From positions 800,001 to 864,000 of the forward strand of contig BK006949.2 in NCBI GenBank assembly GCA_000146045.2: a DNA stretch of 64,000 nt, read 5' to 3'. Position 1 is the stretch's first letter, and each line of letters begins with the position of its first letter. The DNA comes from TPA_inf: Saccharomyces. Lineage: Eukaryota. The notes under the pieces are model-generated. The model was not told the origin of the DNA. It saw nothing but the letters and a program-made list of their open reading frames with translations, and searched no databases. Made by a program: the position numbers and the translations under genes. Below, in pieces: positions 4,645 to 60,449 of the stretch.

Positions 4645-4978
4645 TGAGAAATGGGTGAATGTTGAGATAATTGTTGGGATTCCATTGTTGATAAAGGCTA
4701 TAATATTAGGTATACAGAATATACTAGAAGTTCTCCTCAAGGATTTAGGAATCCATAAAAGGGAATCTGCAATTCTACACAATTCTATAAATATTATTAT
4801 CATCATTTTATATGTTTATATTCATTGATCCTATTACATTATCAATCCTTGCGTTTCAGCTTCCACTAATTTAGATGACTATTTCTCATCATTTGCGTCA
4901 TCTTCTAACACCGTATATGATAATATACTAGTAATGTAAATACTAGTTAGTAGATGATAGTTGATTTCTATTCCAACA
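4645..4978 (-). repeat. 3' LTR (delta, Ty1-H3-type U3) of Ty1 copy 1
   Basis: 334 bp, identical to the 10229-10562 copy. Ends with the canonical TGTTGG...TCTCA termini in element orientation. Confidence 0.95.
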
Positions 4979-5000
4979 TACCACCCATAATGTAATAGAT

Positions 5001-8000
5001 CTAATGAATCCATTTGTTAGTTAATAGTTTAAATGTTTTTATCGGAAGAGGTTTTGTCATCACATCAGCAATGTTCTTCTTGGTCTCGATGTAGTATACG
5101 TATAGATTATTACCTGATACTTCATCTCTAAGTCTCATTGCCTTTGTGCCAAAAAATCTGTTTCTAAATTTCTCTTCATTTGTAGACTTAATTATACTGA
5201 TCGTTGATCTACTATCAGTAAGTAAGCCTTTAATAATTGGTTTCTTGTTAAGTTCTTGCACAAGGTGACTGAGGTTATTCAATAGCGGAATAGCTTCACT
5301 GACTGCGTGTATTTCTGCTTCTGTAGTTGAAGTGCATGTTAACGAAGCCTTTGTCGACTTTCCTCCAATCACTTTTCCGTTGAGTAGGAAAATGTTACCA
5401 ATTTGTGACTTGTAATATGGTTGGTTACCATATGAAGCATCGCTTATTGCGACTAGTTTATTATCTGGCTCGGTAGGTTTGTTTTTGTGCCATATCAGTT
5501 GTTTATCTCTAGTGTCCCACATGAATTGTATTAACTCATATGTCATGTCTAAAACTTGCCTAGAGGGGAATAGTATATGTTGAGCAAGTGTGTTGATGTA
5601 GTATAGTAAGTCAAATCTAAATTTATATCCAACATATGAAGCTAGACCAATCAACTTTTGCATTTCATGTACCTTCTCTTTGTATTCATCTTCATCTATT
5701 TCTAGTTCATCCTGGTCTATATAAAGACCTGGTTGACCTGGAGCGCTAAGTTTTCTTCCTTTTGGATTCAAAGGTACGTTTAATTTGGGTATTTTCTCAG
5801 TTAATGAGTTTTCCATACCTAATTTCATGTATTTACCTCTTTGATATTTGATTTCTAAGCCAAGTATGTCGTACTGAATTTCGTTATCACTTTCACCCAG
5901 ATTTATTATCTTTGTATCGTATTGTTTCTTGAGTGTTGTTATGATTTTCTTATTTGCATTTAAGTCTTTGCTGAACAATATCATATCATCAACGAATAAG
6001 CAAATTGTTACTTGACTATTCTTAAATACGCATGACCATCCACGAACTTCTTCCATACCACACTGTTTTATCAGGTATGATTTGATAGTTTCGTACCAGT
6101 TCGCTCCACTTTGTTTCAATCCATAATGTGATTTCTTCAAACGTATCAACTTATCATTCATTCCTAAATGTGGTGGAGGTCTTATGTATAATTCTTCTTT
6201 GATGTCTGCATACAAATATGCCGAAGATATGTCTAATTGTGTAATATAGTAGTTATTGTCTAATGCAAGTGACAGGGATGTCATCAACGCATAATGATGT
6301 ACAGTGTTGGATTGCATACCTGTATCGTACGTATCAGGATGCTGAATGTCACCTCTTGCAACAAATCTAGCTTTATGAGTTCCGTCACGTTTCTTGTTGA
6401 AGATAAACATTGAGTTTATTACTCTTTTAGGGTCTATTTCTTTTCTGTCATAATATTTGTCAGTGTCCCAAGTATTCATTTTCAATAGTTGGTTGACTTC
6501 TTTGTGGTATGCCTCGATATATTTTTCTTTTTCTTTAATATCTTTATTATAGGTGATTGCCTCATCGTATCGTAAGGTTGTCCGTATTGGTTTGATTGAT
6601 TTTACTGCTTTTACAGCTGCAATCAGGTGAATTCGTTTCTTCGATCTCGGAGGTTCTAAACTACGCATATTCTTAGTATTCCATGTGTCTCGTGATACCT
6701 TAATTTCAGTTTCATTATCTTCTAATGATCTTTTCTTACTGTTGATAGTAGTATAGGCATTAGAGTCACCAATACCACCCAAACTGGAATTAGTTTGATG
6801 AGAATTTATCGGTGGGAGTTCTTTAAATGGGTCAGGGAATTCGGTAGGAGATTCTGGAGGTAGATCAGGGAGTGGGAGATCAGCGATGATAGATTCCTCG
6901 GTATTCTGTTCAGAAACAGTAGTTGGCGTTTTGATAGGAACAATATTGTGCGATGAATTATTTTCCGGTGGAGAAGCATCGATTGAAGGTGAACGGTGTA
7001 TAATCCTTTTCTCAGTCTCTTGGTCACTTATCTGCGGAACAGTTTTGTTGTTGGTACCACCCGTACTGGATATTGGTACGTTTGTATGATTAGTCTCATT
7101 TTCACTGTACGAGTCTGAGTGTCTGAAATCTTTAGATTTACTGGCGTGCGACGACTCATGTGTGTTAGATTGGGACATGGGAGCAAGTAAAGGAACATTT
7201 AATTTATGCATACCACCCGAACCGGTACTCTCGATATTGGAAATTTGGGGGGTGCTAGATCTCTTCTTTGATGGAAGAATATTAGATTCAGATATGTTGG
7301 GGTCAACTTCTCTGGGTGCGCGAATATTGGTTTTAGAAACACGTTTCGAATCTTCAGTATGAGTTGACGGAGGTGTGGAATCGGTTGGACTCACAGCTTT
7401 TGAAAGGACATTTCTCGGTTGCTCAGGATGTAGTTCAATGTCGGATTGGAAGTCATGGTCAGATTCTATGTTAAGATCATTGGATTCTTGGATCTCATTT
7501 GACGCAATGAACGAATGATATGAAGCAGTTAAACGGTTTAAGTCTTCATCGAAAGTGAGTGCGTCGTAATTGAATTGATCTAATCTGGATTCCTTGCCCT
7601 GAAGAATAACATAGTTAGTTGTATCTACTGTCTTCTTTAAGGATGGAAGATAGATGATATATCCATAAGAGTTTCGAGACGGATGTAGAGCGTAGCCTGG
7701 GATGCCACGAGGATGTATTTTGGAGTTAGGGTTGTGATCATTGACGATAACAGGTTGACCGAAAGGTAACAAAGTACTGATATCAAGTCCTGCCAAGCCA
7801 GCATGTTGTCTTGCAGATTTTTTGCTTTTAGGTGAAGCTAGTGAATTTCTCACAATAGTAGAAAATTCGATTGCAGAGAACCATAAATGGTTCGGTAAAC
7901 CACTACATTGCAGTTGAGTACGGCAGTCATCTAATAAGGTACGGTTTAGCCGTTCAGCGACTCCATGTGCTCGGGAATCCGCTGTGGTTGTATAGCATGG

Positions 8001-8963
8001 AGTTATACCATTTTTTTCAAGGAATTTATGGAGAGTTCTGTTAGTATACTCAGAACCACGGTCCATTTGTATAACCAAGACACTGGCCTGAAACTGGTTT
8101 TTAATAAAAGCTAGTATCGTAGTAAAAACATCGAGGATAGAGTCCTCGCGACGGTCGTGTAATGGATAAACCCAACGGAATTTTGTTGTCTCATCAGTAA
8201 ATGAGATGAAATAGGATGGTGCACTTTTTGGTAGGTTGTGAACTGGACCAAATATGTCAGTATGTAGGTATTGAAAGGGTTCGTATGAATTTTGGTATTT
8301 TAGTCGTGAACCTTTGATATGTCTGTGTTTGGTGCTTTTGCCGATTAAACAATCAGGACATTGATAGTCAATAGCACTAGACCAGTCGACATCTGATTCG
8401 TTAAAATACGTGATGGTGTTATTTTTAAGTGAGTATCGAATTGTCTGTGCATTGGCATGCGCAAGCATTCGATGAATGAAAGGATAAGGATATTTGCGTG
8501 TACTTTCACTTGTATGGACATTATTGATGGTGGGTACGGAGATATTTGATGGAAGCAAGTACTTTTTAGATACCCAGTAAAAGTCTCCATATTTTACGAT
8601 AGGTGCAAGTACAGTGCCGTCAGACCGTTCTAAGACGTTTTTGGTAAAGCATGCTGTGATATCTACTGCAGCCAATTCATTCAAACTGAGTAAGTCATAG
8701 GCTATGTTAGGAGTGTGCAATACCTTTATTGATGTTTTGGTGTTGTCCTGGAAGTGAAATTGTAGGTCACCAATAGCGTTAATTGGTATATTTCTTTTTT
8801 GAGCATCAACTACGTTTATGTCAGGATTAGATGATGCTGAGTGTATGTGATGAGCAGATCTTATAAGGGTTCGTGATGCTCCTGAATCGAGAAGGAGGTG
8901 TCCAGGGAGTTCATCATCAGAATGATTAGTATGATTTACTGTAGATTCAGTAAGTTTCTGGCC
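5001..8963 (-). CDS. TYB: TYB (Pol: protease, integrase, RT, RNase H) of Ty1 copy 1, expressed as a Gag-Pol fusion by +1 frameshift at CTT-AGG-C
   Basis: Open frame of 1321 codons from GGC (8963-8961) to the stop at 5001. Retroviral integrase, RT and RNase H motifs (e.g. YVDDM-like [11 protein letters not shown]) are present. The 38-nt overlap with TYA is typical of Ty1. Confidence 0.9.
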
Positions 8964-10269
8964 TAAGATGAAGGTCGTGCTTATTGTTCAATTGAATCGG
9001 TTCAGTAGTTGATTTACTGATGGAATCGTTGTCCGTGCTGGGAGAGTTATTAGATGTGGATACATTGTGAGCCCTGGCTGTTTTCGATTTCGAATTATTT
9101 GTTTTTTGAGGATTCCGAGCTATAACTTTGGGTTTGGTTGTATTCGTATAGCTGCGAGAATCATTCTTCTCATCACTCGGATTTCTCCTGTAATTAGGTT
9201 TACTGTTTCTCGATCCCTGTTGTTCTTCATAAATAGCATGGATATCTAAGAACAGTTCAGCGACTGTCATATTTAGATGTCGATGACGTGTGTAGCGTAA
9301 AAATTTATATTCGCCAGATAGACCTCTCATAATTAATTGGCATGCGACCTTGTTATTGATATGAATGCCATTATTGTTCAGTCTGTCGATAATGTTTGTG
9401 ACTTTTGTTTCAAATGCATCTGCAGGTGTACTGCCATTATATTGCAAATTTGCCAGGGTCACAATGTCGTTTGCCTCTTGGGTATCAGATTGCATTTTTT
9501 CAATACTTTTGGAAAGAATTTTCATGATATCCGTATAATCAACGGATAGGATGTCTTTGACCCAGGTAGGTAGGAATTGAGAGGGAGCAAATATTTGAAA
9601 AGTGTTATACAAGAAGGTGAGTTCATCATCAGTGATCTGACGTACGGGTTTTCCGTTTACTGTCGGAATAATACCACCGAGATTCGAGTTTTGTAAAAAT
9701 TTGATGTATGTTTTAACCCAATTTGGAAAGTCATTAGGTGAGGTTAACATTGGTGGTGGTCTGACATATTTTTTAGTGGATGTCATATCAGAGTCCGCTG
9801 AGGATGAATCAGTAAATGTATTACCTGACTCAGGTGATGGAGTGCTCAGAGGCGTTCCAACTGATGATGGATACTGCGGAAACTGTGATTGTGGCCCAGG
9901 TGGAAAGTACATAGGCGACATTTGATAAGGTGTATACGGAATCATAGATGGGTGTCCGTAAAATGACCAACCAGATGGATTGGCTTGGTTTTGGGTCATC
10001 ATGCACTGCTGTGGGTACGGCCCATTCTGTGGTGAATGTGACTGAGCAGTTTGAGGAGAGGCATGATGGGGGTTCTCTGGAACAGCTGATGAAGCAGGTG
10101 TTGTTGTCTGTTGAGAGTTAGCCTTAGTGGAAGCCTTCTCACATTCTTCTGTTTTGGAAGCTGAAACGTCTAACGGATCTTGATTTGTGTGGACTTCCTT
10201 AGAAGTAACCGAAGCACAGGCGCTACCATGAGAAATGGGTGAATGTTGAGATAATTGTTGGGATTCCAT
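8947..10269 (-). CDS. TYA: TYA (Gag, 440 aa) of Ty1 copy 1
   Basis: The ATG lies inside the 5' LTR ([15 protein letters not shown]...), a canonical Ty1-H3-like Gag. It ends ...HLRPETY* with the frameshift heptamer 7 codons before the stop. Confidence 0.95.
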
Positions 10270-10562
10270 TGTTGATAAAGGCTATAATATTAGGTATACA
10301 GAATATACTAGAAGTTCTCCTCAAGGATTTAGGAATCCATAAAAGGGAATCTGCAATTCTACACAATTCTATAAATATTATTATCATCATTTTATATGTT
10401 TATATTCATTGATCCTATTACATTATCAATCCTTGCGTTTCAGCTTCCACTAATTTAGATGACTATTTCTCATCATTTGCGTCATCTTCTAACACCGTAT
10501 ATGATAATATACTAGTAATGTAAATACTAGTTAGTAGATGATAGTTGATTTCTATTCCAACA
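10229..10562 (-). repeat. 5' LTR (delta) of Ty1 copy 1
   Basis: Identical to the LTR at 4645-4978. Confidence 0.95.
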
Positions 10563-12688: not shown

Positions 12689-12948
12689 GATAAGATGCGA
12701 TAAGACAAGGAGAGGGAAAGTCCGTGCTGCATATCAGCATATCAAATCTGCTAAAACATATTAACTTAACATATATATATAATATATAAAGTATGCCATC
12801 GGGTACCTTAACTAAAAAGGGTCATAGCGTGGAAAGCGAGGAAAAACCTCGAGATGGAAAACCAGTTTATGGAAAACTTCAAAATAACTCGCCCGCCTTA
12901 TCGCGGGCAAACCAGCTACGAGAGATAAGGATTTGGCGCCGAGATAAG
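12689..12948. promoter_or_regulatory. Cluster of GATA-factor (Gln3/Gat1) core sites upstream of MEP3: GATAAG at 12689-12694, 12699-12704, 12924-12929 and 12943-12948, plus CTTATC at 12895-12900
   Basis: Five GATAAG/CTTATC motifs lie within about 260 bp, 240-500 bp upstream of the MEP3 ATG. MEP genes are nitrogen-catabolite-repression targets with GATAAG UAS elements. Confidence 0.5.
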
Positions 12949-13155
12949 GTGGAGATGTTTCTCCGCCGCGCGGCACTTTTTGCCGGAACTGGAACTGGTT
13001 TGAGGTAGGTCAAGAAAGTGTCAGTAAATAGGAGTGACAGAAACGGGCACATCTACTCTTCTTTTTCTTGTTTGTTTCGATTAAATGCAATACATACTCC
13101 TAAAGACATATATATATAAATATGTATGCATGCATGCATGCCTTCATAAGTATTT

Positions 13156-14058
13156 CTACTTCCTCTTTTTACGTTGATCGCTGATATATTCCTTCACAAA
13201 ATTCCTCTTAGATTCAACATCTAACTTCCGTGAGACTAGTTTATATTTGTCGCCACCGTTTAATGCAACGCGTAATTCCTCTAAATTATCCGAGAGTACT
13301 TGTGGCTCGTTGATCTTGCATTTAACATTAATGCCCTTGTTCAGAAATCTAGATAAATACTCCATATTGGAGATGGGCAATGTGGTGATGGCAGTTTTAT
13401 TAGTTTTGATTTGGATGGTCTGCAATTCAAATTTTTTAGTTTTGGCCATTGCGGGGTTCATTGTGGTTATTGAAGGGTCTATGAATTCTTTAAGTTTTTT
13501 CCCGGTTATACTAAACGGTAAGACGCTTTTACCATTACATGAGGTACCCTCAGCAAACATAAAATTCACGGTATTGCCCAATTGAGATAGCTCTGCTACC
13601 TCGTGGCCATAGAGTTTTATATCTAACCCACCGGCGAGGATGAAGTTGATGAATTCTCTTATGGAAACTTTGTATACAATGTCATTGGATGGGACCAACA
13701 ACGTAACAGGCCCTTGAGCTAATAACACCACTGAAAAAGCATCTAAAGGTGAGGTACAATTGCAAATATAAAGCTTGCCCTTCTGTGGATAATGCTTGGA
13801 TTTCCTTACGTCACGTTTCTTGATTCCTTGCACGGTAATTTCCTCTTTCCAACTGAATGTAAACTTCAATATCAAACCCAGTAAGTTGTTCTGGCCAGTT
13901 AGAAGGTACAGCATAATCAATGGTAGCATTATAATGGTTTTCACCCCTAGGATACCCAACAAACACGCTGTCATCACCTTACTAGGTTTCCTGATTGTGT
14001 TTGGTAGAAATGGAGCTATTCCCGTACCATTGTCTCTCCAATTGGTGTACTTTTCCAT
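13156..14058 (-). CDS. LOA1: Lysophosphatidic acid acyltransferase (300 aa), YPR139C
   Basis: 300-aa ORF with an N-terminal TM segment and an acyltransferase-like fold. Position between MEP3 and TAZ1. Confidence 0.7.
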   Translation of the reverse strand: MEKYTNWRDNGTGIAPFLPNTIRKPSKVMTACLLGILGVKTIIMLPLIMLYLLTGQNNLLGLILKFTFSWKEEITVQGIKKRDVRKSKHYPQKGKLYICNCTSPLDAFSVVLLAQGPVTLLVPSNDIVYKVSIREFINFILAGGLDIKLYGHEVAELSQLGNTVNFMFAEGTSCNGKSVLPFSITGKKLKEFIDPSITTMNPAMAKTKKFELQTIQIKTNKTAITTLPISNMEYLSRFLNKGINVKCKINEPQVLSDNLEELRVALNGGDKYKLVSRKLDVESKRNFVKEYISDQRKKRK

Positions 14059-44349: not shown

Positions 44350-44411
44350 TATAGTCATATAATTGTTGGGAATCCACCACTGATAAAGGTTATAATATCA
44401 GGTAAAGAAAT
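44350..44411 (-). repeat. Left part of an old, diverged solo delta (minus orientation) split by the Ty1 copy 2 insertion; the right part is 50341-50512
   Basis: ...ataattgttgggaatccaccactgataaaggttataatatcaggtaaagaaat aligns to the + strand reading of the LTR end TGAGATAATTGTTGGGATTCCATTGTTGATAAAGGCTATAATATTAGGTATACAGAA. The left boundary is approximate. Confidence 0.55.
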
Positions 44412-44749
44412 TGTTGGAATAAAAATCCACTATCGTCTATCAACTAATAGTTATATTATCAATATATTATCATATACGGTGTTAAGATGATGACATAAGT
44501 TATGAGAAGCTGTCATCGATGTTAGAGGAAGCTGAAACGCAAGGATTGATAATGTAATAGGATCAATGAATATAAACATATAAAACGGAATGAGGAATAA
44601 TCGTAATATTAGTATGTAGAAATATAGATTCCATTTTGAGGATTCCTATATCCTCGAGGAGAACTTCTAGTATATTCTGTATACCTAATATTATAGCCTT
44701 TATCAACAATGGAATCCCAACAATTATCTAATTACCCACATATATCTCA
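44412..44749 (+). repeat. 5' LTR of Ty1 copy 2 (338 bp; U3 variant distinct from copy 1)
   Basis: TGTTGGAATAAAAATCCACTATCG...ATATATCTCA. Identical to the 50003-50340 copy. Confidence 0.93.
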
Positions 44750-46031
44750 TGGTAGCGCCTGTGCTTCGGTTACTTCTAAGGAAGTCCACACAAATCAAGA
44801 TCCGTTAGACGTTTCAGCTTCCAAAATTCAAGAATATGATAAGGCTTCCACTAAGGCTAACTCTCAACAGACAACAACACCTGCTTCATCAGCTGTTCCA
44901 GAGAACCCCCATCATGCCTCTCCTCAACCTGCTTCAGTACCACCTCCACAGAATGGGCCGTACCCACAGCAGTGCATGATGACCCAAAACCAAGCCAATC
45001 CATCTGGTTGGTCATTTTACGGACACCCATCTATGATTCCGTATACACCTTATCAAATGTCGCCTATGTACTTTCCACCTGGGCCACAATCACAGTTTCC
45101 GCAGTATCCATCATCAGTTGGAACGCCTCTGAGCACTCCATCACCTGAGTCAGGTAATACATTTACTGATTCATCCTCAGCGGACTCTGATATGACATCC
45201 ACTAAAAAATATGTCAGACCACCACCAATGTTAACCTCACCTAATGACTTTCCAAATTGGGTTAAAACATACATCAAATTTTTACAAAACTCGAATCTCG
45301 GTGGTATTATTCCGACAGTAAACGGAAAACCCGTACGTCCGATCACTGATGATGAACTCACCTTCTTGTATAACACTTTTCAAATATTTGCTCCCTCTCA
45401 ATTCCTACCTACCTGGGTCAAAGACATCCTATCCGTTGATTATACGGATATCATGAAAATTCTTTCCAAAAGTATTGAAAAAATGCAATCTGATACCCAA
45501 GAGGCAAACGACATTGTGACCCTGGCAAATTTGCAATATAATGGCAGTACACCTGCAGATGCATTTGAAACAAAAGTCACAAACATTATCGACAGACTGA
45601 ACAATAATGGCATTCATATCAATAACAAGGTCGCATGTCAATTAATTATGAGAGGTCTATCTGGCGAATATAAATTTTTACGCTACACACGTCATCGACA
45701 TCTAAATATGACAGTCGCTGAACTGTTCTTAGATATCCATGCTATTTATGAAGAACAACAGGGATCGAGAAACAGCAAACCTAATTACAGGAGAAATCCG
45801 AGTGATGAGAAGAATGATTCTCGCAGCTATACGAATACAACCAAACCCAAAGTTATAGCTCGGAATCCTCAAAAAACAAATAATTCGAAATCGAAAACAG
45901 CCAGGGCTCACAATGTATCCACATCTAATAACTCTCCCAGCACGGACAACGATTCCATCAGTAAATCAACTACTGAACCGATTCAATTGAACAATAAGCA
46001 CGACCTTCATCTTAGGCCAGAAACTTACTGA
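44709..46031 (+). CDS. TYA: TYA (Gag, 440 aa) of Ty1 copy 2
   Basis: [15 protein letters not shown]... Ty1-type Gag. The stop TGA is at 46029-46031. Confidence 0.93.
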
Positions 46032-49000
46032 ATCTACAGTAAATCATACTAATCATTCTGATGATGAACTCCCTGGACACCTCCTTCTCGATTCAGGAGC
46101 ATCACGAACCCTTATAAGATCTGCTCATCACATACACTCAGCATCATCTAATCCTGACATAAACGTAGTTGATGCTCAAAAAAGAAATATACCAATTAAC
46201 GCTATTGGTGACCTACAATTTCACTTCCAGGACAACACCAAAACATCAATAAAGGTATTGCACACTCCTAACATAGCCTATGACTTACTCAGTTTGAATG
46301 AATTGGCTGCAGTAGATATCACAGCATGCTTTACCAAAAACGTCTTAGAACGGTCTGACGGCACTGTACTTGCACCTATCGTAAAATATGGAGACTTTTA
46401 CTGGGTATCTAAAAAGTACTTGCTTCCATCAAATATCTCCGTACCCACCATCAATAATGTCCATACAAGTGAAAGTACACGCAAATATCCTTATCCTTTC
46501 ATTCATCGAATGCTTGCGCATGCCAATGCACAGACAATTCGATACTCACTTAAAAATAACACCATCACGTATTTTAACGAATCAGATGTCGACTGGTCTA
46601 GTGCTATTGACTATCAATGTCCTGATTGTTTAATCGGCAAAAGCACCAAACACAGACATATCAAAGGTTCACGACTAAAATACCAAAATTCATACGAACC
46701 CTTTCAATACCTACATACTGACATATTTGGTCCAGTTCACAACCTACCAAAAAGTGCACCATCCTATTTCATCTCATTTACTGATGAGACAACAAAATTC
46801 CGTTGGGTTTATCCATTACACGACCGTCGCGAGGACTCTATCCTCGATGTTTTTACTACGATACTAGCTTTTATTAAAAACCAGTTTCAGGCCAGTGTCT
46901 TGGTTATACAAATGGACCGTGGTTCTGAGTATACTAACAGAACTCTCCATAAATTCCTTGAAAAAAAAAATGGTATAACTCCATGCTATACAACCACAGC
47001 GGATTCCCGAGCACATGGAGTCGCTGAACGGCTAAACCGTACCTTATTAGATGACTGCCGTACTCAACTGCAATGTAGTGGTTTACCGAACCATTTATGG
47101 TTCTCTGCAATCGAATTTTCTACTATTGTGAGAAATTCACTAGCTTCACCTAAAAGCAAAAAATCTGCAAGACAACATGCTGGCTTGGCAGGACTTGATA
47201 TCAGTACTTTGTTACCTTTCGGTCAACCTGTTATCGTCAATGATCACAACCCTAACTCCAAAATACATCCTCGTGGCATCCCAGGCTACGCTCTACATCC
47301 GTCTCGAAACTCTTATGGATATATCATCTATCTTCCATCCTTAAAGAAGACAGTAGATACAACTAACTATGTTATTCTTCAGGGCAAGGAATCCAGATTA
47401 GATCAATTCAATTACGACGCACTCACTTTCGATGAAGACTTAAACCGTTTAACTGCTTCATATCATTCGTTCATTGCGTCAAATGAGATCCAAGAATCCA
47501 ATGATCTTAACATAGAATCTGACCATGACTTCCAATCCGACATTGAACTACATCCTGAGCAACCGAGAAATGTCCTTTCAAAAGCTGTGAGTCCAACCGA
47601 TTCCACACCTCCGTCAACTCATACTGAAGATTCGAAACGTGTTTCTAAAACCAATATTCGCGCACCCAGAGAAGTTGACCCCAACATATCTGAATCTAAT
47701 ATTCTTCCATCAAAGAAGAGATCTAGCACCCCCCAAATTTCCAATATCGAGAGTACCGGTTCGGGTGGTATGCATAAATTAAATGTTCCTTTACTTGCTC
47801 CCATGTCCCAATCTAACACACATGAGTCGTCGCACGCCAGTAAATCTAAAGATTTCAGACACTCAGACTCGTACAGTGAAAATGAGACTAATCATACAAA
47901 CGTACCAATATCCAGTACGGGTGGTACCAACAACAAAACTGTTCCGCAGATAAGTGACCAAGAGACTGAGAAAAGGATTATACACCGTTCACCTTCAATC
48001 GATGCTTCTCCACCGGAAAATAATTCATCGCACAATATTGTTCCTATCAAAACGCCAACTACTGTTTCTGAACAGAATACCGAGGAATCTATCATCGCTG
48101 ATCTCCCACTCCCTGATCTACCTCCAGAATCTCCTACCGAATTCCCTGACCCATTTAAAGAACTCCCACCGATAAATTCTCATCAAACTAATTCCAGTTT
48201 GGGTGGTATTGGTGACTCTAATGCCTATACTACTATCAACAGTAAGAAAAGATCATTAGAAGATAATGAAACTGAAATTAAGGTATCACGAGACACATGG
48301 AATACTAAGAATATGCGTAGTTTAGAACCTCCGAGATCGAAGAAACGAATTCACCTGATTGCAGCTGTAAAAGCAGTAAAATCAATCAAACCAATACGGA
48401 CAACCTTAAGATACGATGAGGCAATCACCTATAATAAAGATATTAAAGAAAAGGAAAAATATATCGAAGCATACCACAAAGAAGTCAACCAACTATTGAA
48501 AATGAATACTTGGGACACTGACAAATATTATGACAGAAAAGAAATAGACCCTAAAAGAGTAATAAATTCAATGTTTATCTTCAACAGGAAACGTGACGGT
48601 ACTCATAAAGCTAGATTTGTTGCAAGAGGTGATATTCAGCATCCTGACACTTACGACTCAGGCATGCAATCCAATACCGTACATCACTATGCATTAATGA
48701 CATCCCTGTCACTTGCATTAGACAATAACTACTATATTACACAATTAGACATATCTTCGGCATATTTGTATGCAGACATCAAAGAAGAATTATACATAAG
48801 ACCTCCACCACATTTAGGAATGAATGATAAGTTGATACGTTTGAAGAAATCACTTTATGGATTGAAACAAAGTGGAGCGAACTGGTACGAAACTATCAAA
48901 TCATACCTGATAAAACAGTGTGGTATGGAAGAAGTTCGTGGATGGTCATGCGTATTTAAGAATAGTCAAGTAACAATTTGCTTATTCGTTGATGATATGA

Positions 49001-49980
49001 TATTGTTCAGCAAAGACTTAAATGCAAATAAGAAAATCATAACAACACTCAAGAAACAATACGATACAAAGATAATAAATCTGGGTGAAAGTGATAACGA
49101 AATTCAGTACGACATACTTGGCTTAGAAATCAAATATCAAAGAGGTAAATACATGAAATTAGGTATGGAAAACTCATTAACTGAGAAAATACCCAAATTA
49201 AACGTACCTTTGAATCCAAAAGGAAGAAAACTTAGCGCTCCAGGTCAACCAGGTCTTTATATAGACCAGGATGAACTAGAAATAGATGAAGATGAATACA
49301 AAGAGAAGGTACATGAAATGCAAAAGTTGATTGGTCTAGCTTCATATGTTGGATATAAATTTAGATTTGACTTACTATACTACATCAACACACTTGCTCA
49401 ACATATACTATTCCCCTCTAGGCAAGTTTTAGACATGACATATGAGTTAATACAATTCATGTGGGACACTAGAGATAAACAACTGATATGGCACAAAAAC
49501 AAACCTACCGAGCCAGATAATAAACTAGTCGCAATAAGTGATGCTTCATATGGTAACCAACCATATTACAAGTCACAAATTGGCAACATATATTTACTTA
49601 ATGGAAAGGTAATTGGAGGAAAGTCCACCAAGGCTTCATTAACATGTACTTCAACTACGGAAGCAGAAATACACGCGATAAGTGAATCTGTCCCATTATT
49701 AAATAACCTCAGTCACCTTGTGCAAGAACTTAACAAGAAACCAATTACTAAAGGATTACTAACCGACAGTAAATCTACAATCAGTATAATTATATCCAAT
49801 AATGAAGAGAAATTTAGAAACAGATTTTTTGGTACTAAAGCAATGAGACTAAGAGATGAAGTATCAGGAAATCATCTGCACGTATGCTATATCGAAACCA
49901 AAAAGAATATTGCAGACGTAATGACCAAACCTCTTCCGATAAAAACATTCAAACTATTAACAAACAAATGGATTCATTAG
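46015..49980 (+). CDS. TYB: TYB (Pol) of Ty1 copy 2 via +1 frameshift at CTTAGGC (46011-46017)
   Basis: 1322-codon open frame from GGC at 46015 to the stop at 49978-49980. The ORF-track 1240-aa segment starts at an internal Met. Confidence 0.9.
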
Positions 49981-50002
49981 ATCTATTACATTATGGGTGG
50001 TA

Positions 50003-50340
50003 TGTTGGAATAAAAATCCACTATCGTCTATCAACTAATAGTTATATTATCAATATATTATCATATACGGTGTTAAGATGATGACATAAGTTATGAGAAG
50101 CTGTCATCGATGTTAGAGGAAGCTGAAACGCAAGGATTGATAATGTAATAGGATCAATGAATATAAACATATAAAACGGAATGAGGAATAATCGTAATAT
50201 TAGTATGTAGAAATATAGATTCCATTTTGAGGATTCCTATATCCTCGAGGAGAACTTCTAGTATATTCTGTATACCTAATATTATAGCCTTTATCAACAA
50301 TGGAATCCCAACAATTATCTAATTACCCACATATATCTCA
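50003..50340 (+). repeat. 3' LTR of Ty1 copy 2
   Basis: Identical to the 5' LTR. Confidence 0.93.
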
Positions 50341-50512
50341 GAAATTTTACTAGAAGTTCATTATCCTATTACTTATCAATCCTTGCATTTCAGCTTTCAT
50401 TAAATGTGCTCACTGTTTCTCAATCTTTATGCCATATTTTTGCACCGTATACGATAACATGCAAATAGTACGAATACTAATCGATATGTGATGGTTGATT
50501 CTTATTCCAACA
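50341..50512 (-). repeat. Right part of the old diverged solo delta (minus orientation) into which Ty1 copy 2 inserted
   Basis: gaaattttactagaagttcattatcctattacttatcaatccttgcatttcagc...ttattccaaca. Delta-like but about 15-20% diverged. It starts with the TSD copy GAAAT. Confidence 0.6.
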
Positions 50513-50613
50513 ATTATCTTGAACTTCAATCAACTCTCGCAGTTGTCACGTGCAATTTGATACATGTCGCGTTGATATACAAGTACTAAATACGGTACAC
50601 AATGGATTATTTC

Positions 50614-50628
50614 TGTTGTATCTCAAAA
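50614..50628 (+). repeat. First 15 bp of a Ty3 sigma LTR (TGTTGTATCTCAAAA), separated from the rest of the sigma (56555-56885) by the Ty1 copy 3 insertion
   Basis: Joining 50614-50628 to 56560 onward reconstitutes the sigma 5' end TGTTGTATCTCAAAATGAGATATGTCAG. CAAAA is duplicated at both Ty1 flanks. Confidence 0.8.
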
Positions 50629-50966
50629 TGAGAAATGGGTGAATGTTGAGATAATTGTTGGGATTCCATTGTTGATAAAGGCTATAATATTAGGTATACA
50701 GAATATACTAGAAGTTCTCCTCGAGGATATAGGAATCCTCAAAATGGAATCTATATTTCTACATACTAATATTACGATTATTCCTCATTCCGTTTTATAT
50801 GTTTATATTCATTGATCCTATTACATTATCAATCCTTGCGTTTCAGCTTCCTCTAACATCGATGACAGCTTCTCATAACTTATGTCATCATCTTAACACC
50901 GTATATGATAATATATTGATAATATAACTATTAGTTGATAGACGATAGTGGATTTTTATTCCAACA
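50629..50966 (-). repeat. 3' LTR of Ty1 copy 3
   Basis: 338 bp, reading TGAGAAATGG...TTCCAACA on the + strand. Same U3 family as the copy 2 LTRs. Confidence 0.93.
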
Positions 50967-50988
50967 TACCACCCATAATGTAATAGAT

Positions 50989-53900
50989 CTAATGAATCCA
51001 TTTGTTTGTTAATAGTTTGAATGTTTTTATCGGAAGAGGTTTGGTCATTACGTCTGCAATATTCTTTTTGGTTTCGATATAGCATACGTGCAGATGATTT
51101 CCTGATACTTCATCTCTTAGTCTCATTGCTTTAGTACCAAAAAATCTGTTTCTAAATTTCTCTTCATTATTGGATATAATTATACTGATTGTAGATTTAC
51201 TGTCGGTTAGTAATCCTTTAGTAATTGGTTTCTTGTTAAGTTCTTGCACAAGGTGACTGAGGTTATTTAATAATGGGACAGATTCACTTATCGCGTGTAT
51301 TTCTGCTTCCGTAGTTGAAGTACATGTTAATGAAGCCTTGGTGGACTTTCCTCCAATTACCTTTCCATTAAGTAAATATATGTTGCCAATTTGTGACTTG
51401 TAATATGGTTGGTTACCATACGAAGCATCACTTATTGCGACTAGTTTATTATCTGGCTCGGTAGGTTTGTTTTTGTGCCATATCAGTTGTTTATCTCTAG
51501 TGTCCCACATGAATTGTATCAACTCATATGTCATGTCTAAAACTTGCCTAGAGGGGAATAGTATATGTTGAGCAAGTGTGTTGATGTAGTATAGTAAGTC
51601 AAATCTAAATTTATATCCAACATATGAAGCTAGACCAATCAACTTTTGCATTTCATGTACCTTCTCTTTGTATTCATCTTCATCTATTTCTAGTTCATCC
51701 TGGTCTATATAAAGACCTGGTTGACCTGGAGCGCTAAGTTTTCTTCCTTTTGGATTCAAAGGTACGTTTAATTTGGGTATTTTCTCAGTTAATGAGTTTT
51801 CCATACCTAATTTCATGTATTTACCTCTTTGATATTTGATTTCTAAGCCAAGTATGTCGTACTGAATTTCGTTATCACTTTCACCCAGATTTATTATCTT
51901 TGTATCGTATTGTTTCTTGAGTGTTGTTATGATTTTCTTATTTGCATTTAAGTCTTTGCTGAACAATATCATATCATCAACGAATAAGCAAATTGTTACT
52001 TGACTATTCTTAAATACGCATGACCATCCACGAACTTCTTCCATACCACACTGTTTTATCAGGTATGATTTGATAGTTTCGTACCAGTTCGCTCCACTTT
52101 GTTTCAATCCATAATGTGATTTCTTCAAACGTATCAACTTATCATTCATTCCTAAATGTGGTGGAGGTCTTATGTATAATTCTTCTTTGATGTCTGCATA
52201 CAAATATGCCGAAGATATGTCTAATTGTGTAATATAGTAGTTATTGTCTAATGCAAGTGACAGGGATGTCATCAACGCATAATGATGTACAGTGTTGGAT
52301 TGCATACCTGTATCGTACGTATCAGGATGCTGAATGTCACCTCTTGCAACAAATCTAGCTTTATGAGTTCCGTCACGTTTCTTGTTGAAGATAAACATTG
52401 AATTTATTACTCTTTTGGGGTCTATTTCTTTTCTGTCATAATATCTGTCAGTGTCCCAAGTTTTCATCTTCAACAGTTGGTTGACTTCTTTGTGGTATGC
52501 TTCGATATATTTTTCTTTTTCTTTAATATCTTTATTATAGGTGATTGCCTCATCGTATCGTAAGGTTGTTCGTATTGGTTTGATTGATTTTACTGCTTTT
52601 ACAGCTGCAATCAGGTGAATTCGTTTCTTCGATCTCGGAGGTTCTAAACTACGCATATTCTTAGTATTCCATGTGTCTCGTGATACCTTAATTTCAGTTT
52701 CATTATCTTCTAATGATCTTTTCTTACTGTTGATAGTAGTATAGGCATTAGAGTCACCAATACCACCCAAACTGGAATTAGTTTGACGAGAATTGATCGG
52801 TGGAAGTTCTTTAAAGGAGTCTGATAATTCGGTAGGAGGTTCTGGAGGCGGATCGGGAAGTGGGAGATCAGCGATAATAGATTCCTCGGTATTCTGTTCA
52901 GAAACAGTAGTTGGCGTTTTGATAGGAACAATATTGTGCGATGAATTATTTTCCGGTGGAGAAGCATCGATTGAAGGTGAACGGTGTATAATCCTTTTCT
53001 CAGTCTCCTGGTCGCTTATCTGCGGAACAGTTTTGTTGTTGGTACCACCCGTACTGGATATTGGTACGTTTGTATGATTAGTCTCATTGTTACTGTACGA
53101 GTCTGAGTGTCTGAAATCTTTAGATTTACTGGCGTGCGACGACTCATGTGTGTTAGATTGGGACATGGGAGCAAGTAAAGGAACATTTAATTTATGCATA
53201 CCACCCGAACCGGTACTCTCGATATTGGAAATTTGGGGGGTGCTAGATCTCTTCTTTGATGGAAGAATATTAGATTCAGATATGTTGGGGTCAACTTCTC
53301 TGGGTGCACGAAGATTGATTTCAGATATAGGTTTTGAATCTTCAGTATGAGTTGACGGAGGTGTGGAATCGGTTGGACTCACAGCTTTTGAAAGGACATT
53401 TCTCGGTTGCTCAGGATGTAGTTCAATGTCAGATTGGAAGTCATGGTCAGATTCTATGTTAAGATCATTGGATTCTTGGATCTCATTTGACGCAATGAAC
53501 GAATGATATGAAGCAGTTAAACGGTTTAAGTCTTCATCGAAAGTGAGTGCGTCGTAATTGAATTGATCTAATCTGGATTCCTTGCCCTGAAGAATAACAT
53601 AGTTAGTTGTATCTACTGTCTTCTTTAAGGATGGAAGATAGATGATATATCCATAAGAGTTTCGAGACGGATGTAGAGCGTAACCTGGGATGCCACGAGG
53701 ATGTATTTTGGAGTTAGGGTTGTGATCATTGACGATAACAGGTTGACCGAAAGGTAACAAAGTACTGATATCAAGTCCTGCCAAGCCAGCATGTTGGCTT
53801 GCAGATTTTTTGCTTTTAGGTGAAGCTAGTGAATTTCTCACAATAGTAGAAAATTCGATTGCAGAGAACCATAAATGGTTCGGTAAACCACTACATTGCA

Positions 53901-54951
53901 GTTGAGTACGGCAGTCATCTAATAAGGTACGGTTGAGCCGTTCAGCGACTCCATGTGCTCGGGAATCCGCTGTGGTTGTATAGCATGGAGTTATACCATT
54001 TTTTTCAAGGAATTTATGGAGAGTTCTGTTAGTATACTCAGAACCACGGTCCATTTGTATAACCAAGACACTGGCCTGAAATTGGTTTTTAATGAAAGCT
54101 AGTATCGTGGTAAATACATCGAGGATAGAGTCCTCGCGACGGTCGTGCAATGGATAAACCCAACGGAATTTTGTTGTCTCATCAGTAAATGAGATGAAAT
54201 AGGATGGTGCACTTTTTGGTAGGTTGTGAACTGGACCAAATATGTCAGTATGTAGGTATTGAAAGGGTTCGTATGAATTTTGGTATTTTAGTCGTGAACC
54301 TTTGATATGTCTGTGTTTGGTGCTTTTGCCGATTAAACAATCAGGACATTGATAGTCAATAGCACTAGACCAGTCGACATCTGATTCGTTAAAATACGTG
54401 ATGGTGTTATTTTTAAGTGAGTATCGAATTGTCTGTGCATTGGCATGCGCAAGCATTCGATGAATGAAAGGATAAGGATATTTGCGTGTACTTTCACTTG
54501 TATGGACATTATTGATGGTGGGTACGGAGATATTTGATGGAAGCAAGTACCTTTTAGATACCCAGTAAAAGTCTCCATATTGTACGATAGGTGCAAGTAC
54601 AGTGCCGTCAGATCGTTCTAAGACGTTTTTGGTAAAGCATGCTGTGATATCTACTGCAGCCAATTCATTCAAACTGAGTAAGTCATAGGCTATGTTAGGA
54701 GTGTGCAATACCTTTATTGATGTTTTGGTGTTGTCCTGGAAGTGAAATTGTAGGTCACCAATAGCGTTAATTGGTATATTTCTTTTTTGAGCATCAACTA
54801 CGTTTATGTCAGGATTAGATGATGCTGAGTGTATGTGATGAGCAGATCTTATAAGGGTTCGTGATGCTCCTGAATCGAGAAGGAGGTGTCCAGGGAGTTC
54901 ATCATCAGAATGATTAGTGTGATTTACCGTAGATTCAGTAAGTTCCTGGCC
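50989..54951 (-). CDS. TYB: TYB (Pol) of Ty1 copy 3 via +1 frameshift
   Basis: 1321-codon open frame from GGC (54951-54949) to the stop at 50989. The integrase C-terminal variable region (…[13 protein letters not shown]…[14 protein letters not shown]…) differs from copies 1 and 2. Confidence 0.9.
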
Positions 54952-56257
54952 TAAGGTGAAGGTCGTGCTTATTGTTCAATTGAATCGGTTCAGTAGTTGA
55001 TTTACTGATGGAATCGTTGTCCGTGCTGGGAGAGTTATTAGATGTGGATACATTGTGAGCCCTGGCTGTTTTCGATTTCGAATTATTTGTTTTTTGAGGA
55101 TTCCGAGCTATAACTTTGGGTTTGGTTGTATTCGTATAGCTGCGAGAATCATTCTTCTCATCACTCAGATTTCTCCTGTAATTAGGTTTGCTGTTTCTCG
55201 ATCCCTGTTGTTCTTCATAAATAGCATGGATATCTAAGAACAGTTCAGCGACTGTCATATTTAGATGTCGATGACGTGTGTAGCGTAAAAATTTATATTC
55301 GCCAGATAGACCTCTCATAATTAATTGGCATGCGACCTTGTTATTGATATGAATGCCATTATTGTTCAGTCTGTCGATAATGTTTGTGACTTTTGTTTCA
55401 AATGCATCTGCAGGTGTACTGCCATTATATTGCAAATTTGCCAGGGTCACAATGTCGTTTGCCTCTTGGGTATCAGATTGCATTTTTTCAATACTTTTGG
55501 AAAGAATTTTCATGATATCCGTATAATCAACGGATAGGATGTCTTTGACCCAGGTAGGTAGGAATTGAGAGGGAGCAAATATTTGAAAAGTGTTATACAA
55601 GAAGGTGAGTTCATCATCAGTGATCTGACGTACGGGTTTTCCGTTTACTGTCGGAATAATACCACCGAGATTCGAGTTTTGTAAAAATTTGATGTATGTT
55701 TTAACCCAATTTGGAAAGTCATTAGGTGAGGTTAACATTGGTGGTGGTCTGACATATTTTTTAGTGGATGTCATATCAGAGTCTGCTGAGGATGAATCAG
55801 TAAATGTATTACCTGACTCAGGTGATGGAGTGCTCAGAGGCGTTCCAACTGATGATGGATACTGCGGAAACTGTGATTGTGGCCCAGGTGGAAAGTACAT
55901 AGGCGACATTTGATAAGGTGTATACGGAATCATAGATGGGTGTCCGTAAAATGACCAACCAGATGGATTGGCTTGGTTTTGGGTCATCATGCACTGCTGT
56001 GGGTACGGCCCATTCTGTGGAGGTGGTACTGAAGCAGGTTGAGGAGAGGCATGATGGGGGTTCTCTGGAACAGCTGATGAAGCAGGTGTTGTTGTCTGTT
56101 GAGAGTTAGCCTTAGTAGAAGCCTTCTCACATTCTTCTGTTTTGGAAGCTGAAACGTCTAACGGATCTTGATTTGTGTGGACTTCCTTAGAAGTAACCGA
56201 AGCACAGGCGCTACCATGAGAAATGGGTGAATAATTAGATAATTGTTGGGATTCCAT
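54935..56257 (-). CDS. TYA: TYA (Gag, 440 aa) of Ty1 copy 3
   Basis: [15 protein letters not shown]... ending ...HLRPGTY*. Confidence 0.93.
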
Positions 56258-56554
56258 TGTTGATAAAGGCTATAATATTAGGTATACAGAATATACTAGA
56301 AGTTCTCCTCGAGGATATAGGAATCCTCAAAATGGAATCTATATTTCTACATACTAATATTACGATTATTCCTCATTCCGTTTTATATGTTTATATTCAT
56401 TGATCCTATTACATTATCAATCCTTGCGTTTCAGCTTCCTCTAACATCGATGACAGCTTCTCATAACTTATGTCATCATCTTAACACCGTATATGATAAT
56501 ATATTGATAATATAACTATTAGTTGATAGACGATAGTGGATTTTTATTCCAACA
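56217..56554 (-). repeat. 5' LTR of Ty1 copy 3
   Basis: 338 bp. Contains the TYA ATG. Confidence 0.93.
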
Positions 56555-56885
56555 CAAAATGAGATATGTCAGTATGACAATACGTCATCCTGAACGTTCA
56601 TAAAACACATATGAAACAACCTTATAACAAAACGAACAACATGAGACAAAACCCGTCCTTCCCTAGCTGAACTACCCAAAAGTATAAATGCCTGAACAAT
56701 TAGTTTAGATCCGAGATTCCGCGCTTCCACCACTTAGTATGATTCATATTTTATATAATATATAAGATAAGTAACATTCCGTGAATTAATCTGATAAACT
56801 GTTTTGACAACTGGTTACTTCCCTAAGACTGTTTATATTAGGATTGTCAAGACACTCCGGTATTACTCGAGCCCGTAATACAACA
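56555..56885 (+). repeat. Ty3 sigma solo LTR (remaining 331 bp of about 341) ending 16 bp upstream of tRNA-Ala
   Basis: ...TGAGATATGTCAGTATGACAATACGTCA...CGAGCCCGTAATACAACA is a recognisable sigma sequence. Its position 16 bp 5' of the mature tRNA end is the canonical Ty3 target at the Pol III start site. Confidence 0.85.
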
Positions 56886-56901
56886 ATTTACAACAAGATT
56901 C

Positions 56902-56974
56902 GGGCGTGTGGCGTAGTCGGTAGCGCGCTCCCTTAGCATGGGAGAGGTCTCCGGTTCGATTCCGGACTCGTCCA
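56902..56974 (+). tRNA. tRNA-Ala (anticodon AGC)
   Basis: 73-nt sequence GGGCGTGTGGCGTAGTCGGTAGCGCGCTCCCTTAGCATGGGAGAGGTCTCCGGTTCGATTCCGGACTCGTCCA. Contains the G3:U70 alanine identity pair and a B box GGTTCGATTCC. A T-run follows. Confidence 0.93.
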
Positions 56975-57582: not shown

Positions 57583-59745
57583 ATGCCTTTGAGAAATCTA
57601 ACTGAAACGCACAACTTTAGTAGCACAAACCTGGACACAGATGGTACAGGCGACGATCATGATGGTGCTCCTCTTTCCTCATCTCCTTCTTTTGGACAAC
57701 AAAATGACAATAGCACCAACGATAATGCTGGTCTCACAAACCCTTTTATGGGGAGTGACGAAGAATCTAATGCGCGGGATGGAGAATCTCTGTCTTCTTC
57801 TGTTCATTATCAGCCACAGGGGAGTGACTCTTCACTACTTCATGACAATTCTCGTCTAGATCTAAGTCAAAATAAAGGTGTATCTGATTACAAAGGTTAC
57901 TATTCCAGGAACAATAGTAGAGCTGTGAGTACGGCTAATGATAACTCATTTCTTCAGCCACCACATAGAGCTATAGCCTCTTCTCCTTCTTTGAATTCTA
58001 ATTTATCGAAGAATGATATTCTCTCACCGCCAGAATTTGATAGATATCCCTTAGTGGGTTCCAGAGTCACTTCTATGACTCAACTGAACCATCATGGTCG
58101 CTCGCCAACATCATCTCCAGGAAACGAGTCGTCCGCCTCATTCTCTTCTAATCCGTTTTTGGGCGAGCAAGATTTTTCTCCATTTGGTGGGTATCCTGCT
58201 TCATCGTTCCCACTTATGATAGATGAAAAGGAAGAAGATGATTATTTACACAATCCTGACCCCGAAGAAGAGGCAAGACTGGATAGAAGGAGGTTCATAG
58301 ATGACTTCAAGTACATGGATAAAAGGTCTGCTAGTGGGCTAGCTGGTGTATTGCTCTTGTTTCTGGCAGCCATCTTTATTTTTATTGTTTTGCCAGCGTT
58401 GACCTTTACCGGTGCTATTGATCACGAAAGCAACACTGAAGAAGTTACATATTTAACTCAATACCAATATCCTCAACTATCCGCCATTAGAACATCTCTG
58501 GTTGACCCAGACACACCTGATACAGCGAAGACAAGAGAAGCTATGGATGGCTCTAAGTGGGAATTAGTATTTTCTGATGAGTTTAATGCAGAAGGCAGAA
58601 CATTTTATGATGGGGATGATCCATACTGGACAGCCCCTGATGTTCACTATGATGCTACTAAGGATTTAGAATGGTACAGTCCAGACGCTTCCACAACTGT
58701 GAACGGAACCTTGCAGCTGAGAATGGATGCCTTTAAGAACCATGGCTTATATTACAGATCAGGTATGTTGCAGAGTTGGAATAAGGTTTGTTTCACGCAG
58801 GGTGCTCTAGAAATCTCTGCAAATCTACCAAATTATGGCCGTGTTTCAGGTTTGTGGCCCGGTCTTTGGACTATGGGTAATTTAGGGAGGCCCGGTTATT
58901 TGGCTAGTACCCAAGGTGTCTGGCCTTATTCTTATGAATCGTGTGATGCTGGTATTACACCCAACCAAAGTTCCCCGGATGGTATTTCTTACTTGCCGGG
59001 ACAAAAGTTAAGTATTTGTACTTGTGATGGTGAAGATCATCCGAATCAAGGTGTTGGTAGAGGAGCTCCAGAAATTGATGTTTTGGAAGGTGAAACTGAT
59101 ACTAAGATTGGTGTAGGTATAGCCTCTCAATCCTTGCAAATTGCACCTTTTGATATCTGGTACATGCCTGACTATGATTTTATCGAGGTTTACAATTTCA
59201 CAACAACGACCATGAACACTTATGCTGGCGGTCCATTTCAACAAGCCGTATCTGCTGTCTCAACTTTGAACGTAACTTGGTATGAATTCGGTGAGTACGG
59301 TGGCTACTTTCAAAAATATGCCATTGAGTATCTGAACGATGACGACAATGGTTATATCCGTTGGTTTGTTGGTGATACTCCAACTTATACTATTCATGCT
59401 AAAGCCTTACATCCTGATGGTAATATTGGTTGGAGAAGAATCAGTAAAGAACCAATGTCGATTATTCTAAATCTGGGTATTTCCAACAATTGGGCTTATA
59501 TTGATTGGCAGTATATTTTCTTCCCAGTGGTTATGTCGATTGACTATGTTAGAATATACCAACCAAGTAATGCTATATCCGTGACATGCGATCCAAGTGA
59601 CTATCCAACATATGATTATATTCAATCGCACTTAAATGCATTCCAGAATGCAAACTTAACTACTTGGGAAGATGCTGGTTACACGTTCCCTAAGAATATC
59701 CTAACTGGTAAATGTACTAGCTCGAAGTTCAAGTTATCCTCTTAA
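57583..59745 (+). CDS. KRE6: Type II membrane glycoside-hydrolase-family-16-like protein required for beta-1,6-glucan synthesis (720 aa)
   Basis: Ser-rich cytoplasmic N-terminus, a single TM (LAGVLLLFLAAIFIFIVLPAL) and a luminal GH16-like domain. Length 720 aa. Confidence 0.85.
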   Translation: MPLRNLTETHNFSSTNLDTDGTGDDHDGAPLSSSPSFGQQNDNSTNDNAGLTNPFMGSDEESNARDGESLSSSVHYQPQGSDSSLLHDNSRLDLSQNKGVSDYKGYYSRNNSRAVSTANDNSFLQPPHRAIASSPSLNSNLSKNDILSPPEFDRYPLVGSRVTSMTQLNHHGRSPTSSPGNESSASFSSNPFLGEQDFSPFGGYPASSFPLMIDEKEEDDYLHNPDPEEEARLDRRRFIDDFKYMDKRSASGLAGVLLLFLAAIFIFIVLPALTFTGAIDHESNTEEVTYLTQYQYPQLSAIRTSLVDPDTPDTAKTREAMDGSKWELVFSDEFNAEGRTFYDGDDPYWTAPDVHYDATKDLEWYSPDASTTVNGTLQLRMDAFKNHGLYYRSGMLQSWNKVCFTQGALEISANLPNYGRVSGLWPGLWTMGNLGRPGYLASTQGVWPYSYESCDAGITPNQSSPDGISYLPGQKLSICTCDGEDHPNQGVGRGAPEIDVLEGETDTKIGVGIASQSLQIAPFDIWYMPDYDFIEVYNFTTTTMNTYAGGPFQQAVSAVSTLNVTWYEFGEYGGYFQKYAIEYLNDDDNGYIRWFVGDTPTYTIHAKALHPDGNIGWRRISKEPMSIILNLGISNNWAYIDWQYIFFPVVMSIDYVRIYQPSNAISVTCDPSDYPTYDYIQSHLNAFQNANLTTWEDAGYTFPKNILTGKCTSSKFKLSS

Positions 59746-60378: not shown

Positions 60379-60449
60379 GCGCAAGTGGTTTAGTGGTAAA
60401 ATCCAACGTTGCCATCGTTGGGCCCCCGGTTCGATTCCGGGCTTGCGCA
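60379..60449 (+). tRNA. tRNA-Gly (anticodon GCC)
   Basis: 71-nt sequence GCGCAAGTGGTTTAGTGGTAAAATCCAACGTTGCCATCGTTGGGCCCCCGGTTCGATTCCGGGCTTGCGCA. The acceptor stem pairs (GCGCAAG/CTTGCGC). A T-run follows. Confidence 0.93.

Follow-up and report, generated by a model that had tools for sequence, protein, structure and literature searches.

The window analysed here, a stretch of 64,000 nucleotides, is chromosome XVI 800001-864000 of S. cerevisiae S288C. Between its CUR1 and KRE6 genes lies a nested group of LTR retrotransposons, ending beside a gene for tRNA-Ala(AGC) that is the Pol III target of all the insertions at the locus (Table 1). An exact protein look-up matched KRE6, CUR1, and both Ty1 Gag proteins exactly to S288C entries. 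The locus is not a discovery because it is already named in the reference genome: SGD uses the names YPRCTy1-4, YPRWsigma3 and tA(AGC)P (Carr, Bensasson & Bergman 2012, PMC3511429), and the sacCer2 coordinates published in the same work, 850625-856550 for YPRCTy1-4 and 856551-856881 for YPRWsigma3, are those of the window plus 800000 minus 4. YPRWTy1-3, YPRCdelta22 and YPRCTy1-4 have also been described, in that order, ~91 kb from TEL16R (Chan & Kolodner 2011). All of the elements are therefore known, and the sole new detail concerns a published re-annotation, in which the sigma measures 331 bp and YPRCTy1-4 is un-nested.

Table 1. Features of the nested locus, in window coordinates
Feature	Positions	Strand	Remarks
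YPRCdelta22, left part	44355-44411	-	old diverged solo delta split by Ty1-A; left boundary approximate
Ty1-A (YPRWTy1-3)	44412-50340	+	full length, 5,929 bp; LTRs 44412-44749 and 50003-50340; TSD GAAAT at 44407-44411 and 50341-50345
YPRCdelta22, right part	50341-50512	-	opens with the second copy of GAAAT (5 bases); 73% to young deltas
Unique spacer	50513-50613	.	ATTTC at its end (50609-50613), putative left copy of the Ty3 duplication
Sigma positions 1-15	50614-50628	+	TGTTGTATCTCAAAA; last 5 bases CAAAA (50624-50628), left copy of the Ty1-B duplication
Ty1-B (YPRCTy1-4)	50629-56554	-	full length, 5,926 bp; 3' LTR 50629-50966, 5' LTR 56217-56554
CAAAA	56555-56559	+	repeats sigma positions 11-15, as the right-hand duplication copy of Ty1-B
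Sigma positions 16-341	56560-56885	+	56555-56885 carries the YPRWsigma3 annotation
tRNA leader, 16 bp	56886-56901	+	ATTTACAACAAGATTC; ATTTA at 56886-56890, putative right copy of the Ty3 duplication
tRNA-Ala(AGC), tA(AGC)P	56902-56974	+	detected by both ARAGORN and Rfam
KRE6 (protein)	57583-59742		

Anatomy of the nested elements

Ty1-B is complete at both ends. From 50629 it reads TGAGAAATGGG... (TGAGAAATGGGTGAAT...), the reverse complement of the end of a delta LTR, and its second delta terminates ...TATTCCAACA at 56554. A repeat finder reported its two LTRs, 338 bp each with TG...CA ends, as a direct pair spaced 5,588 bp, together with a long inverted match between Ty1-B and the second Ty1 on the left. 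Next to the LTRs are the PPT (GGGTGGTA), present as its reverse complement TACCACCCA from 50967, and the PBS (TGGTAGCGCC), present as GGCGCTACCA at 56207-56216. TYA occupies 54935-56257 (440 aa; PF01021, E = 1e-233), and the CTTAGGC +1 frameshift heptamer, which is in frame, leads to an intact 1,755-aa Gag-Pol; in the TYB frame Pfam places rve at residues 147-247 and then RVT_2 at 765-971, which is the copia domain order. The Gag is letter-for-letter the 'Transposon Ty1-PR3 Gag polyprotein' of S288C, and is found on one 948,066-bp contig in the collection. The element is a Ty1 and not a Ty2: the first 100 nt of the TY2-I reference have no match in the window, and they do match the element in another copy of the locus (L005).

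The sigma that hosts Ty1-B is the LTR of Ty3. It resumes after 56559 as TGAGATATGTCAG... (TGAGATATGTCAGTATGAC...) and terminates ...CGTAATACAACA at 56885. When 50614-50628 is joined to 56560-56885, so that one CAAAA is dropped, the result is a 341-bp LTR with TG...CA ends and 8-bp inverted termini (TGTTGTAT / ATACAACA). Compared with the 340-bp TY3-LTR reference (Carr 2012 File S1), the rebuilt sigma has 2 mismatches and 1 extra A, i.e., 99.1% identity. Retaining both copies of CAAAA creates a 5-base insertion relative to this reference, and with the right-hand part alone the first 10-15 bases of the reference stay unmatched. A 5/5 match between the flanks at fixed positions has a chance of ~0.0013. 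The window holds no second sigma, as judged from a 28-mer search with ≤3 mismatches and from BLAST, which matches only the 331-bp part.

The sigma ends 16 bp from tRNA-Ala, in the region where Pol III initiates (~15-19 bp from the tRNA's mature 5' end). The first-pass annotation, made from the sequence, had described a sigma split by a Ty1 into 50614-50628 and 56555-56885, with CAAAA once at each Ty1 flank, with halves that restore a contiguous LTR, and with an end 16 bp from the tRNA at the target position of Ty3; all of this, coordinates included, was confirmed. It had also put both elements at the Pol III start site, which is correct for the sigma and has to be amended for Ty1-B, whose position is 343-347 bp upstream of tRNA-Ala, within the usual ~1 kb window of Ty1.

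The putative duplication of the Ty3 itself is imperfect. The sigma is flanked by ATTTC (left) and by ATTTA (right), which agree at 4/5 bases, and the last base of the right copy is A in every allele with a sigma (in L007 the copy is ATTAA) and C in all the empty alleles. The simplest reading of these bases would be a Ty3 target duplication followed by one substitution in the right copy; the need to assume this substitution counts against the explanation preferred below.

On the left side of the locus, Ty1-A interrupts the old delta at a site that lay ~625-630 bp upstream of the tRNA when the element integrated. Its Gag and the 'Ty1-OR Gag' of S288C agree at every residue, and its LTRs are identical to each other, whereas those of Ty1-B show 3 clustered differences and are identical elsewhere. 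Naive LTR dating would consequently make Ty1-B the older of the two, contrary to the population data given below, and the 3-base cluster is attributed to a probable gene conversion.

Why was the short arm of the sigma overlooked? A piece of 15 bp falls under the detection size of RepeatMasker-type annotation. Such a remnant is invisible to similarity-based annotation, and the consequence is a published re-annotation with a truncated YPRWsigma3 and an un-nested YPRCTy1-4. In the GFF of Carr 2012 (File S3, PMC3511429), YPRWsigma3 is a single 331-bp fragment, with its first 10 bases missing in the alignment, and the label "nested" is given to YPRWTy1-3 and not to YPRCTy1-4, so that the 15-bp 5' piece and the CAAAA duplication go unrecorded there. 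In the literature library searched, neither the 15-bp piece (50614-50628) nor the CAAAA duplication was found on record.

Sigma copies at other loci offer a further view of the reconstruction. Metagenome contigs that were scanned for the rebuilt sigma junction yielded 12 yeast stretches, and these include five independent sigma loci (L014, L016, L017, L018 and L020) that are 98.8-100% identical to the reconstruction. Their distance to a tRNA gene is 15-16 bp, with the sigma in one orientation or the other. Those with both ends present have perfect 5-bp duplications (GAGCG, ATACA and TAATT). One of the neighbouring tRNAs has an intron and was detected by Rfam only. Two contigs of ~5.4-5.6 kb (L015 and L022) are not full-length Ty3 elements and contain only the first 55 nt of a sigma, at a contig end; the link between the sigma and the internal domain of Ty3 consequently rests on a published alignment, in which full-length Ty3 shows the LTR, then the PBS, and then an ORF starting ATGAGCTTTATGGATCAA... 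(Carr 2012, PMC3511429).

Alleles in other assemblies

The KRE6 protein was looked up in public assemblies and the 10-kb flanks were inspected; the 24 index blocks covered, out of 193 that list the protein, gave ten copies of the locus that differ in structure. In three of them (L001, L003 and L008) there is no sigma: the left flank, ...GGATTATTTC, runs directly into CAACAAGATTC and the tRNA, so that the spacer 50513-50613 is contiguous with the tRNA leader, and a single, scar-free ATTTC lies 11 bp before the tRNA, as an empty Ty3 target. Three others (L007, L009 and L010) have the sigma and the old delta, both intact and without Ty1. In L006 (GCA_010356935.1), the sigma accompanies Ty1-A, whose junctions recur exactly as in the window; this sigma is uninterrupted, identical to the reconstruction over 341/341 bp, has the same left flank as in the window, and is followed 16 bp downstream by the tRNA. 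With flanks 99.9-100% identical, L006 is the closest relative among these copies, and its sigma proves the reconstruction directly. The combination of sigma, Ty1-A and Ty1-B, with the Ty1 within the sigma, occurs in the window only, among the matches listed. In the alleles with an intact sigma, CAAAA is present as a single copy, and the old delta is uninterrupted in six assemblies (L002, L004, L005, L007, L009 and L010).

Published population data, scored from SGRP, agree with these stages. YPRCdelta22, spanned across the Ty1, is fixed (29/29; Carr 2012 File S2, PMC3511429), YPRWsigma3 is polymorphic (14/22) and YPRCTy1-4 is restricted to S288c (1/22; Carr 2012, PMC3511429). It is the allelic series in the other assemblies that gives the order of events: old delta, sigma, Ty1-A, Ty1-B. 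The first-pass annotation had counted two successive integrations and had suggested comparing strains to find an allele with the sigma free of Ty1. The comparison, performed in silico with assemblies, located an intact sigma without Ty1-B in L006, L007, L009 and L010; both integrations and their order stand, while the count rises to at least four, since besides the sigma and Ty1-B there is an old delta split by a second Ty1.

Two other accounts of the series were rejected. The sigma-less alleles might have been deletions; each, however, keeps exactly one ATTTC and no scar, and LTR retrotransposons are not known to excise precisely. The oppositely oriented Ty1 elements might have recombined to invert the DNA between them; a single inversion would have swapped the target duplications, and they match for each element (GAAAT/GAAAT and CAAAA/CAAAA). 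The insertions are of integrase type, with 5-bp duplications.

Proposed history and its alternatives

With a probability of about 0.9, we favor a history in which the region upstream of the chromosome XVI tRNA-Ala(AGC) gene of S288C was struck four times by LTR retrotransposons. An ancient insertion of Ty1/Ty2 type would have come first, collapsing to the solo delta YPRCdelta22 that is now fixed in the species. A Ty3 would then have entered the Pol III initiation site, duplicating ATTTC at positions -16 to -12, counted from the mature end of the tRNA, and would later have been reduced to the solo 341-bp sigma by LTR-LTR recombination. Ty1-A came next, entering the old delta and duplicating GAAAT, and finally Ty1-B, in the S288C lineage only, would have inserted at the junction of sigma positions 15 and 16 and duplicated CAAAA. 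That the Ty3 was already a solo LTR when Ty1-B arrived we infer from the fact that every other sigma allele examined is solo and that the sigma of the nearest relative, L006, equals the reconstruction.

The two kinds of target agree with what is established for these families. Ty3 integrates 1-4 bp upstream of the Pol III TSS via TFIIIB (Brf1/TBP) (PMC5911963), and Ty1 integrates via Pol III subunits, Rpc40 and others, in a ~1 kb window of nucleosomal DNA with hot spots ~70-80 bp apart (PMC5911963, PMC3545840). By analogy with this work, tethering to TFIIIB may have brought the Ty3 integrase to the tRNA-Ala start site, and tethering to Pol III (Rpc40/AC40) may have brought the Ty1 integrases to nucleosomal DNA up to ~1 kb upstream.

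Could the same structure have been reached by a different route? Perhaps Ty1-B entered one LTR of a full-length Ty3, and the collapse to a solo sigma took place only later, by recombination between the remnant LTR and the other one. Such a route would end in the structure that the window now has, and the LTR does occur in full-length Ty3 elements (Carr 2012 alignment, PMC3511429). However, the sigma is solo in all the other sigma-bearing alleles seen (L002, L004-L007 and L009-L011), no allele with Ty3 internal sequence occurs among the locus copies examined, and L006, the closest relative by its flanks, has a sigma that does not differ from the reconstruction at any base, which makes a late collapse very improbable. 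There is likewise only a slim chance that a solo delta came first at the CAAAA site and that homologous recombination with Ty1 cDNA, or with another genomic Ty1, later turned it into a full-length element, so that the duplication was not made by the present element. Recombination of Ty cDNA is an established pathway, and the clustered 3-base difference between the LTRs indicates that some recombination or conversion touched Ty1-B. Yet a solo delta at CAAAA is absent from the 11 other locus copies, YPRCTy1-4 is private to S288c, and its LTRs agree outside the 3 clustered sites.

The last alternative is that the sigma was merely 5'-truncated by 10 bp, with a Ty1 abutting it and a 15-mer on the far side that resembles a sigma by coincidence. 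The listing of a single 331-bp fragment and of a YPRCTy1-4 that lacks the nested label (Carr 2012 File S3, PMC3511429) would fit such a truncation, but the 15-mer is exactly sigma 1-15, for which the chance at a fixed position is ~3e-9, and its left flank is the flank of the intact sigma in L006, L007, L009, L010 and L011. The 15-mer match and the intact-sigma alleles refute this reading, and its probability is negligible. The successive integration of Ty3 and of Ty1-B, the latter into a sigma that was probably already solo, remains the preferred account.

The locus is a clean textbook case of two targeting mechanisms that have met at a single tRNA gene, with Ty3 inserted at the Pol III start site and Ty1 among the nucleosomes arrayed upstream. 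Every intermediate allele is present in public assemblies, which makes it a useful case for teaching and for benchmarking nested-TE callers; its importance beyond annotation hygiene is small.

Comparable nested insertions

The nearest term of comparison is in the window itself, where YPRWTy1-3 sits in YPRCdelta22. There the host LTR is a delta, whereas the host of YPRCTy1-4 is the sigma of Ty3, a gypsy-type element, so that the second case superimposes two families, each with targeting rules of its own.

Other copies of the locus provide closer parallels. In L002, a Ty2-like element lies in the tRNA-Ala sigma at positions 193-197, with the TSD GTATG; in L005, a delta and a Ty2, in which the initial 100 nt of the TY2-I reference recur without change, lie at 197-201 with GATTC; and L004 has a solo delta within positions 193-201. 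L001, which is without the tRNA-Ala sigma, has a neighbouring tRNA-Gly sigma with a solo delta nested at ~73-81. At a different locus, the SGRP strain alignment (Carr 2012, PMC3511429) has a sigma in which a Ty1 delta comes after this same GTATG. It is possible, if rather doubtful, that particular sigma positions (e.g., 193-201) are recurrent landing sites of Ty1/Ty2, since a sigma, at its fixed distance from the tRNA, presents one sequence in one nucleosome phase at many loci; were this true, Ty3 LTRs would steer later copia-type integrations to predictable base positions.

Like the window, the four alleles hold a copia-type element, or its LTR, inside a tRNA-proximal sigma. They differ from it in the sigma positions, i.e., 193-197, 197-201 and ~73-81 versus 11-15 in the window, and also in family for L002 and L005 (Ty2) or in state for L004 and L001 (solo LTR). 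Sigmas close to tRNA genes have received copia-type insertions repeatedly, which the two targeting rules would lead one to expect, and the locus described here is an ordinary Ty pile-up at a tRNA gene.

Insertions into sigma elements beside tRNA genes

In other strains, too, the Ty3 solo LTR (sigma) next to tRNA-Ala carries an insertion at sigma positions 193-201: of Ty2 type in L002 and L005, a solo delta in L004. In L001, a copy of the locus lacking this sigma, the adjacent tRNA gene, tRNA-Gly(GCC), has a sigma ~19 bp upstream of it, at L001 ~12785-13470, and that sigma is itself interrupted by a solo delta around sigma positions 73-81. Upstream of tRNA-Gly in the window, neither that sigma nor its solo delta is present.

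Features in the window and in copies of the KRE6 locus (L001, L002, L004, L005) from public assemblies
Feature	Location	Strand	Remarks
Third full-length Ty1, YPRCTy1-2 (named in Carr 2012)	window 4645-10562	minus	
Delta fragment adjoining YPRCTy1-2	window 4499-4638		
Ty1-A (YPRWTy1-3)	window 44412-50340	plus	full-length
Ty1-B (YPRCTy1-4)	window 50629-56554	minus	full-length
Insertion in tRNA-Ala sigma	L002 3187-9154		
Solo delta in tRNA-Ala sigma	L004 8828-9159		flanks differ: GTATG / GATTC
Insertion in tRNA-Ala sigma	L005 2869-9159		order LTR-LTR-internal-LTR; first two LTRs without spacer
tRNA-Gly sigma of L001	equivalent window point ~60358		upstream of tRNA-Gly 60379-60449

Of the two copies of the Ty3 target duplication, the one nearer the tRNA (window 56886-56890) reads ATTTA in every sigma-bearing allele among the window and the ten locus copies (L001-L010, near 9305-9320), with the single exception of L007, where it is ATTAA. 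It was compared with its distal counterpart at window 50609-50613; sites empty of sigma read ATTTC. In ATTTA the altered base, at position -12 relative to the mature end of the tRNA, is near the expected Pol III start.

A sigma was also seen in L014, yeast DNA within metagenome contigs, where it lies 16 bp from the 5' end of an intron-containing tRNA and in the opposite orientation. This tRNA (L014 3164-3259) was detected by Rfam, and ARAGORN, as run here, gave no match for it.

LTR divergence and population frequency

The two LTRs of Ty1-B (50629-50966 and 56217-56554) differ at three places only, clustered at positions 319, 321 and 322 of 338 and reading CTCAACA versus CTAATTA; together they resemble a short tract of gene conversion. 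Ty1-A, the older of the two by population data, has no difference between its LTRs. Dating these elements from LTR divergence would give wrong ages.

For YPRWTy1-3, a recurrent translocation partner in the list of Chan & Kolodner (2011), File S2 of Carr et al. 2012 gives an allele frequency of 0.93, or 14 of the 15 SGRP strains that could be scored; only one of the ten assemblies considered here carries it. The gap is a flag and no contradiction, because the ten were reduced to structurally distinct copies and do not sample strains at random.

Three full-length Ty1 elements

YPRCTy1-2 is 96.5% identical to Ty1-B and lies upstream of tRNA-Asn (10675), with 112 bp between the two. Ty1-A and Ty1-B share 98.45% identity across 5.9 kb and lie tail to tail, separated by a spacer of only 288 bp. 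An inverted-Ty fragile site was reportedly the subject studied by Casper and colleagues in 2009. The tail-to-tail layout of Ty1-A and Ty1-B resembles that site.
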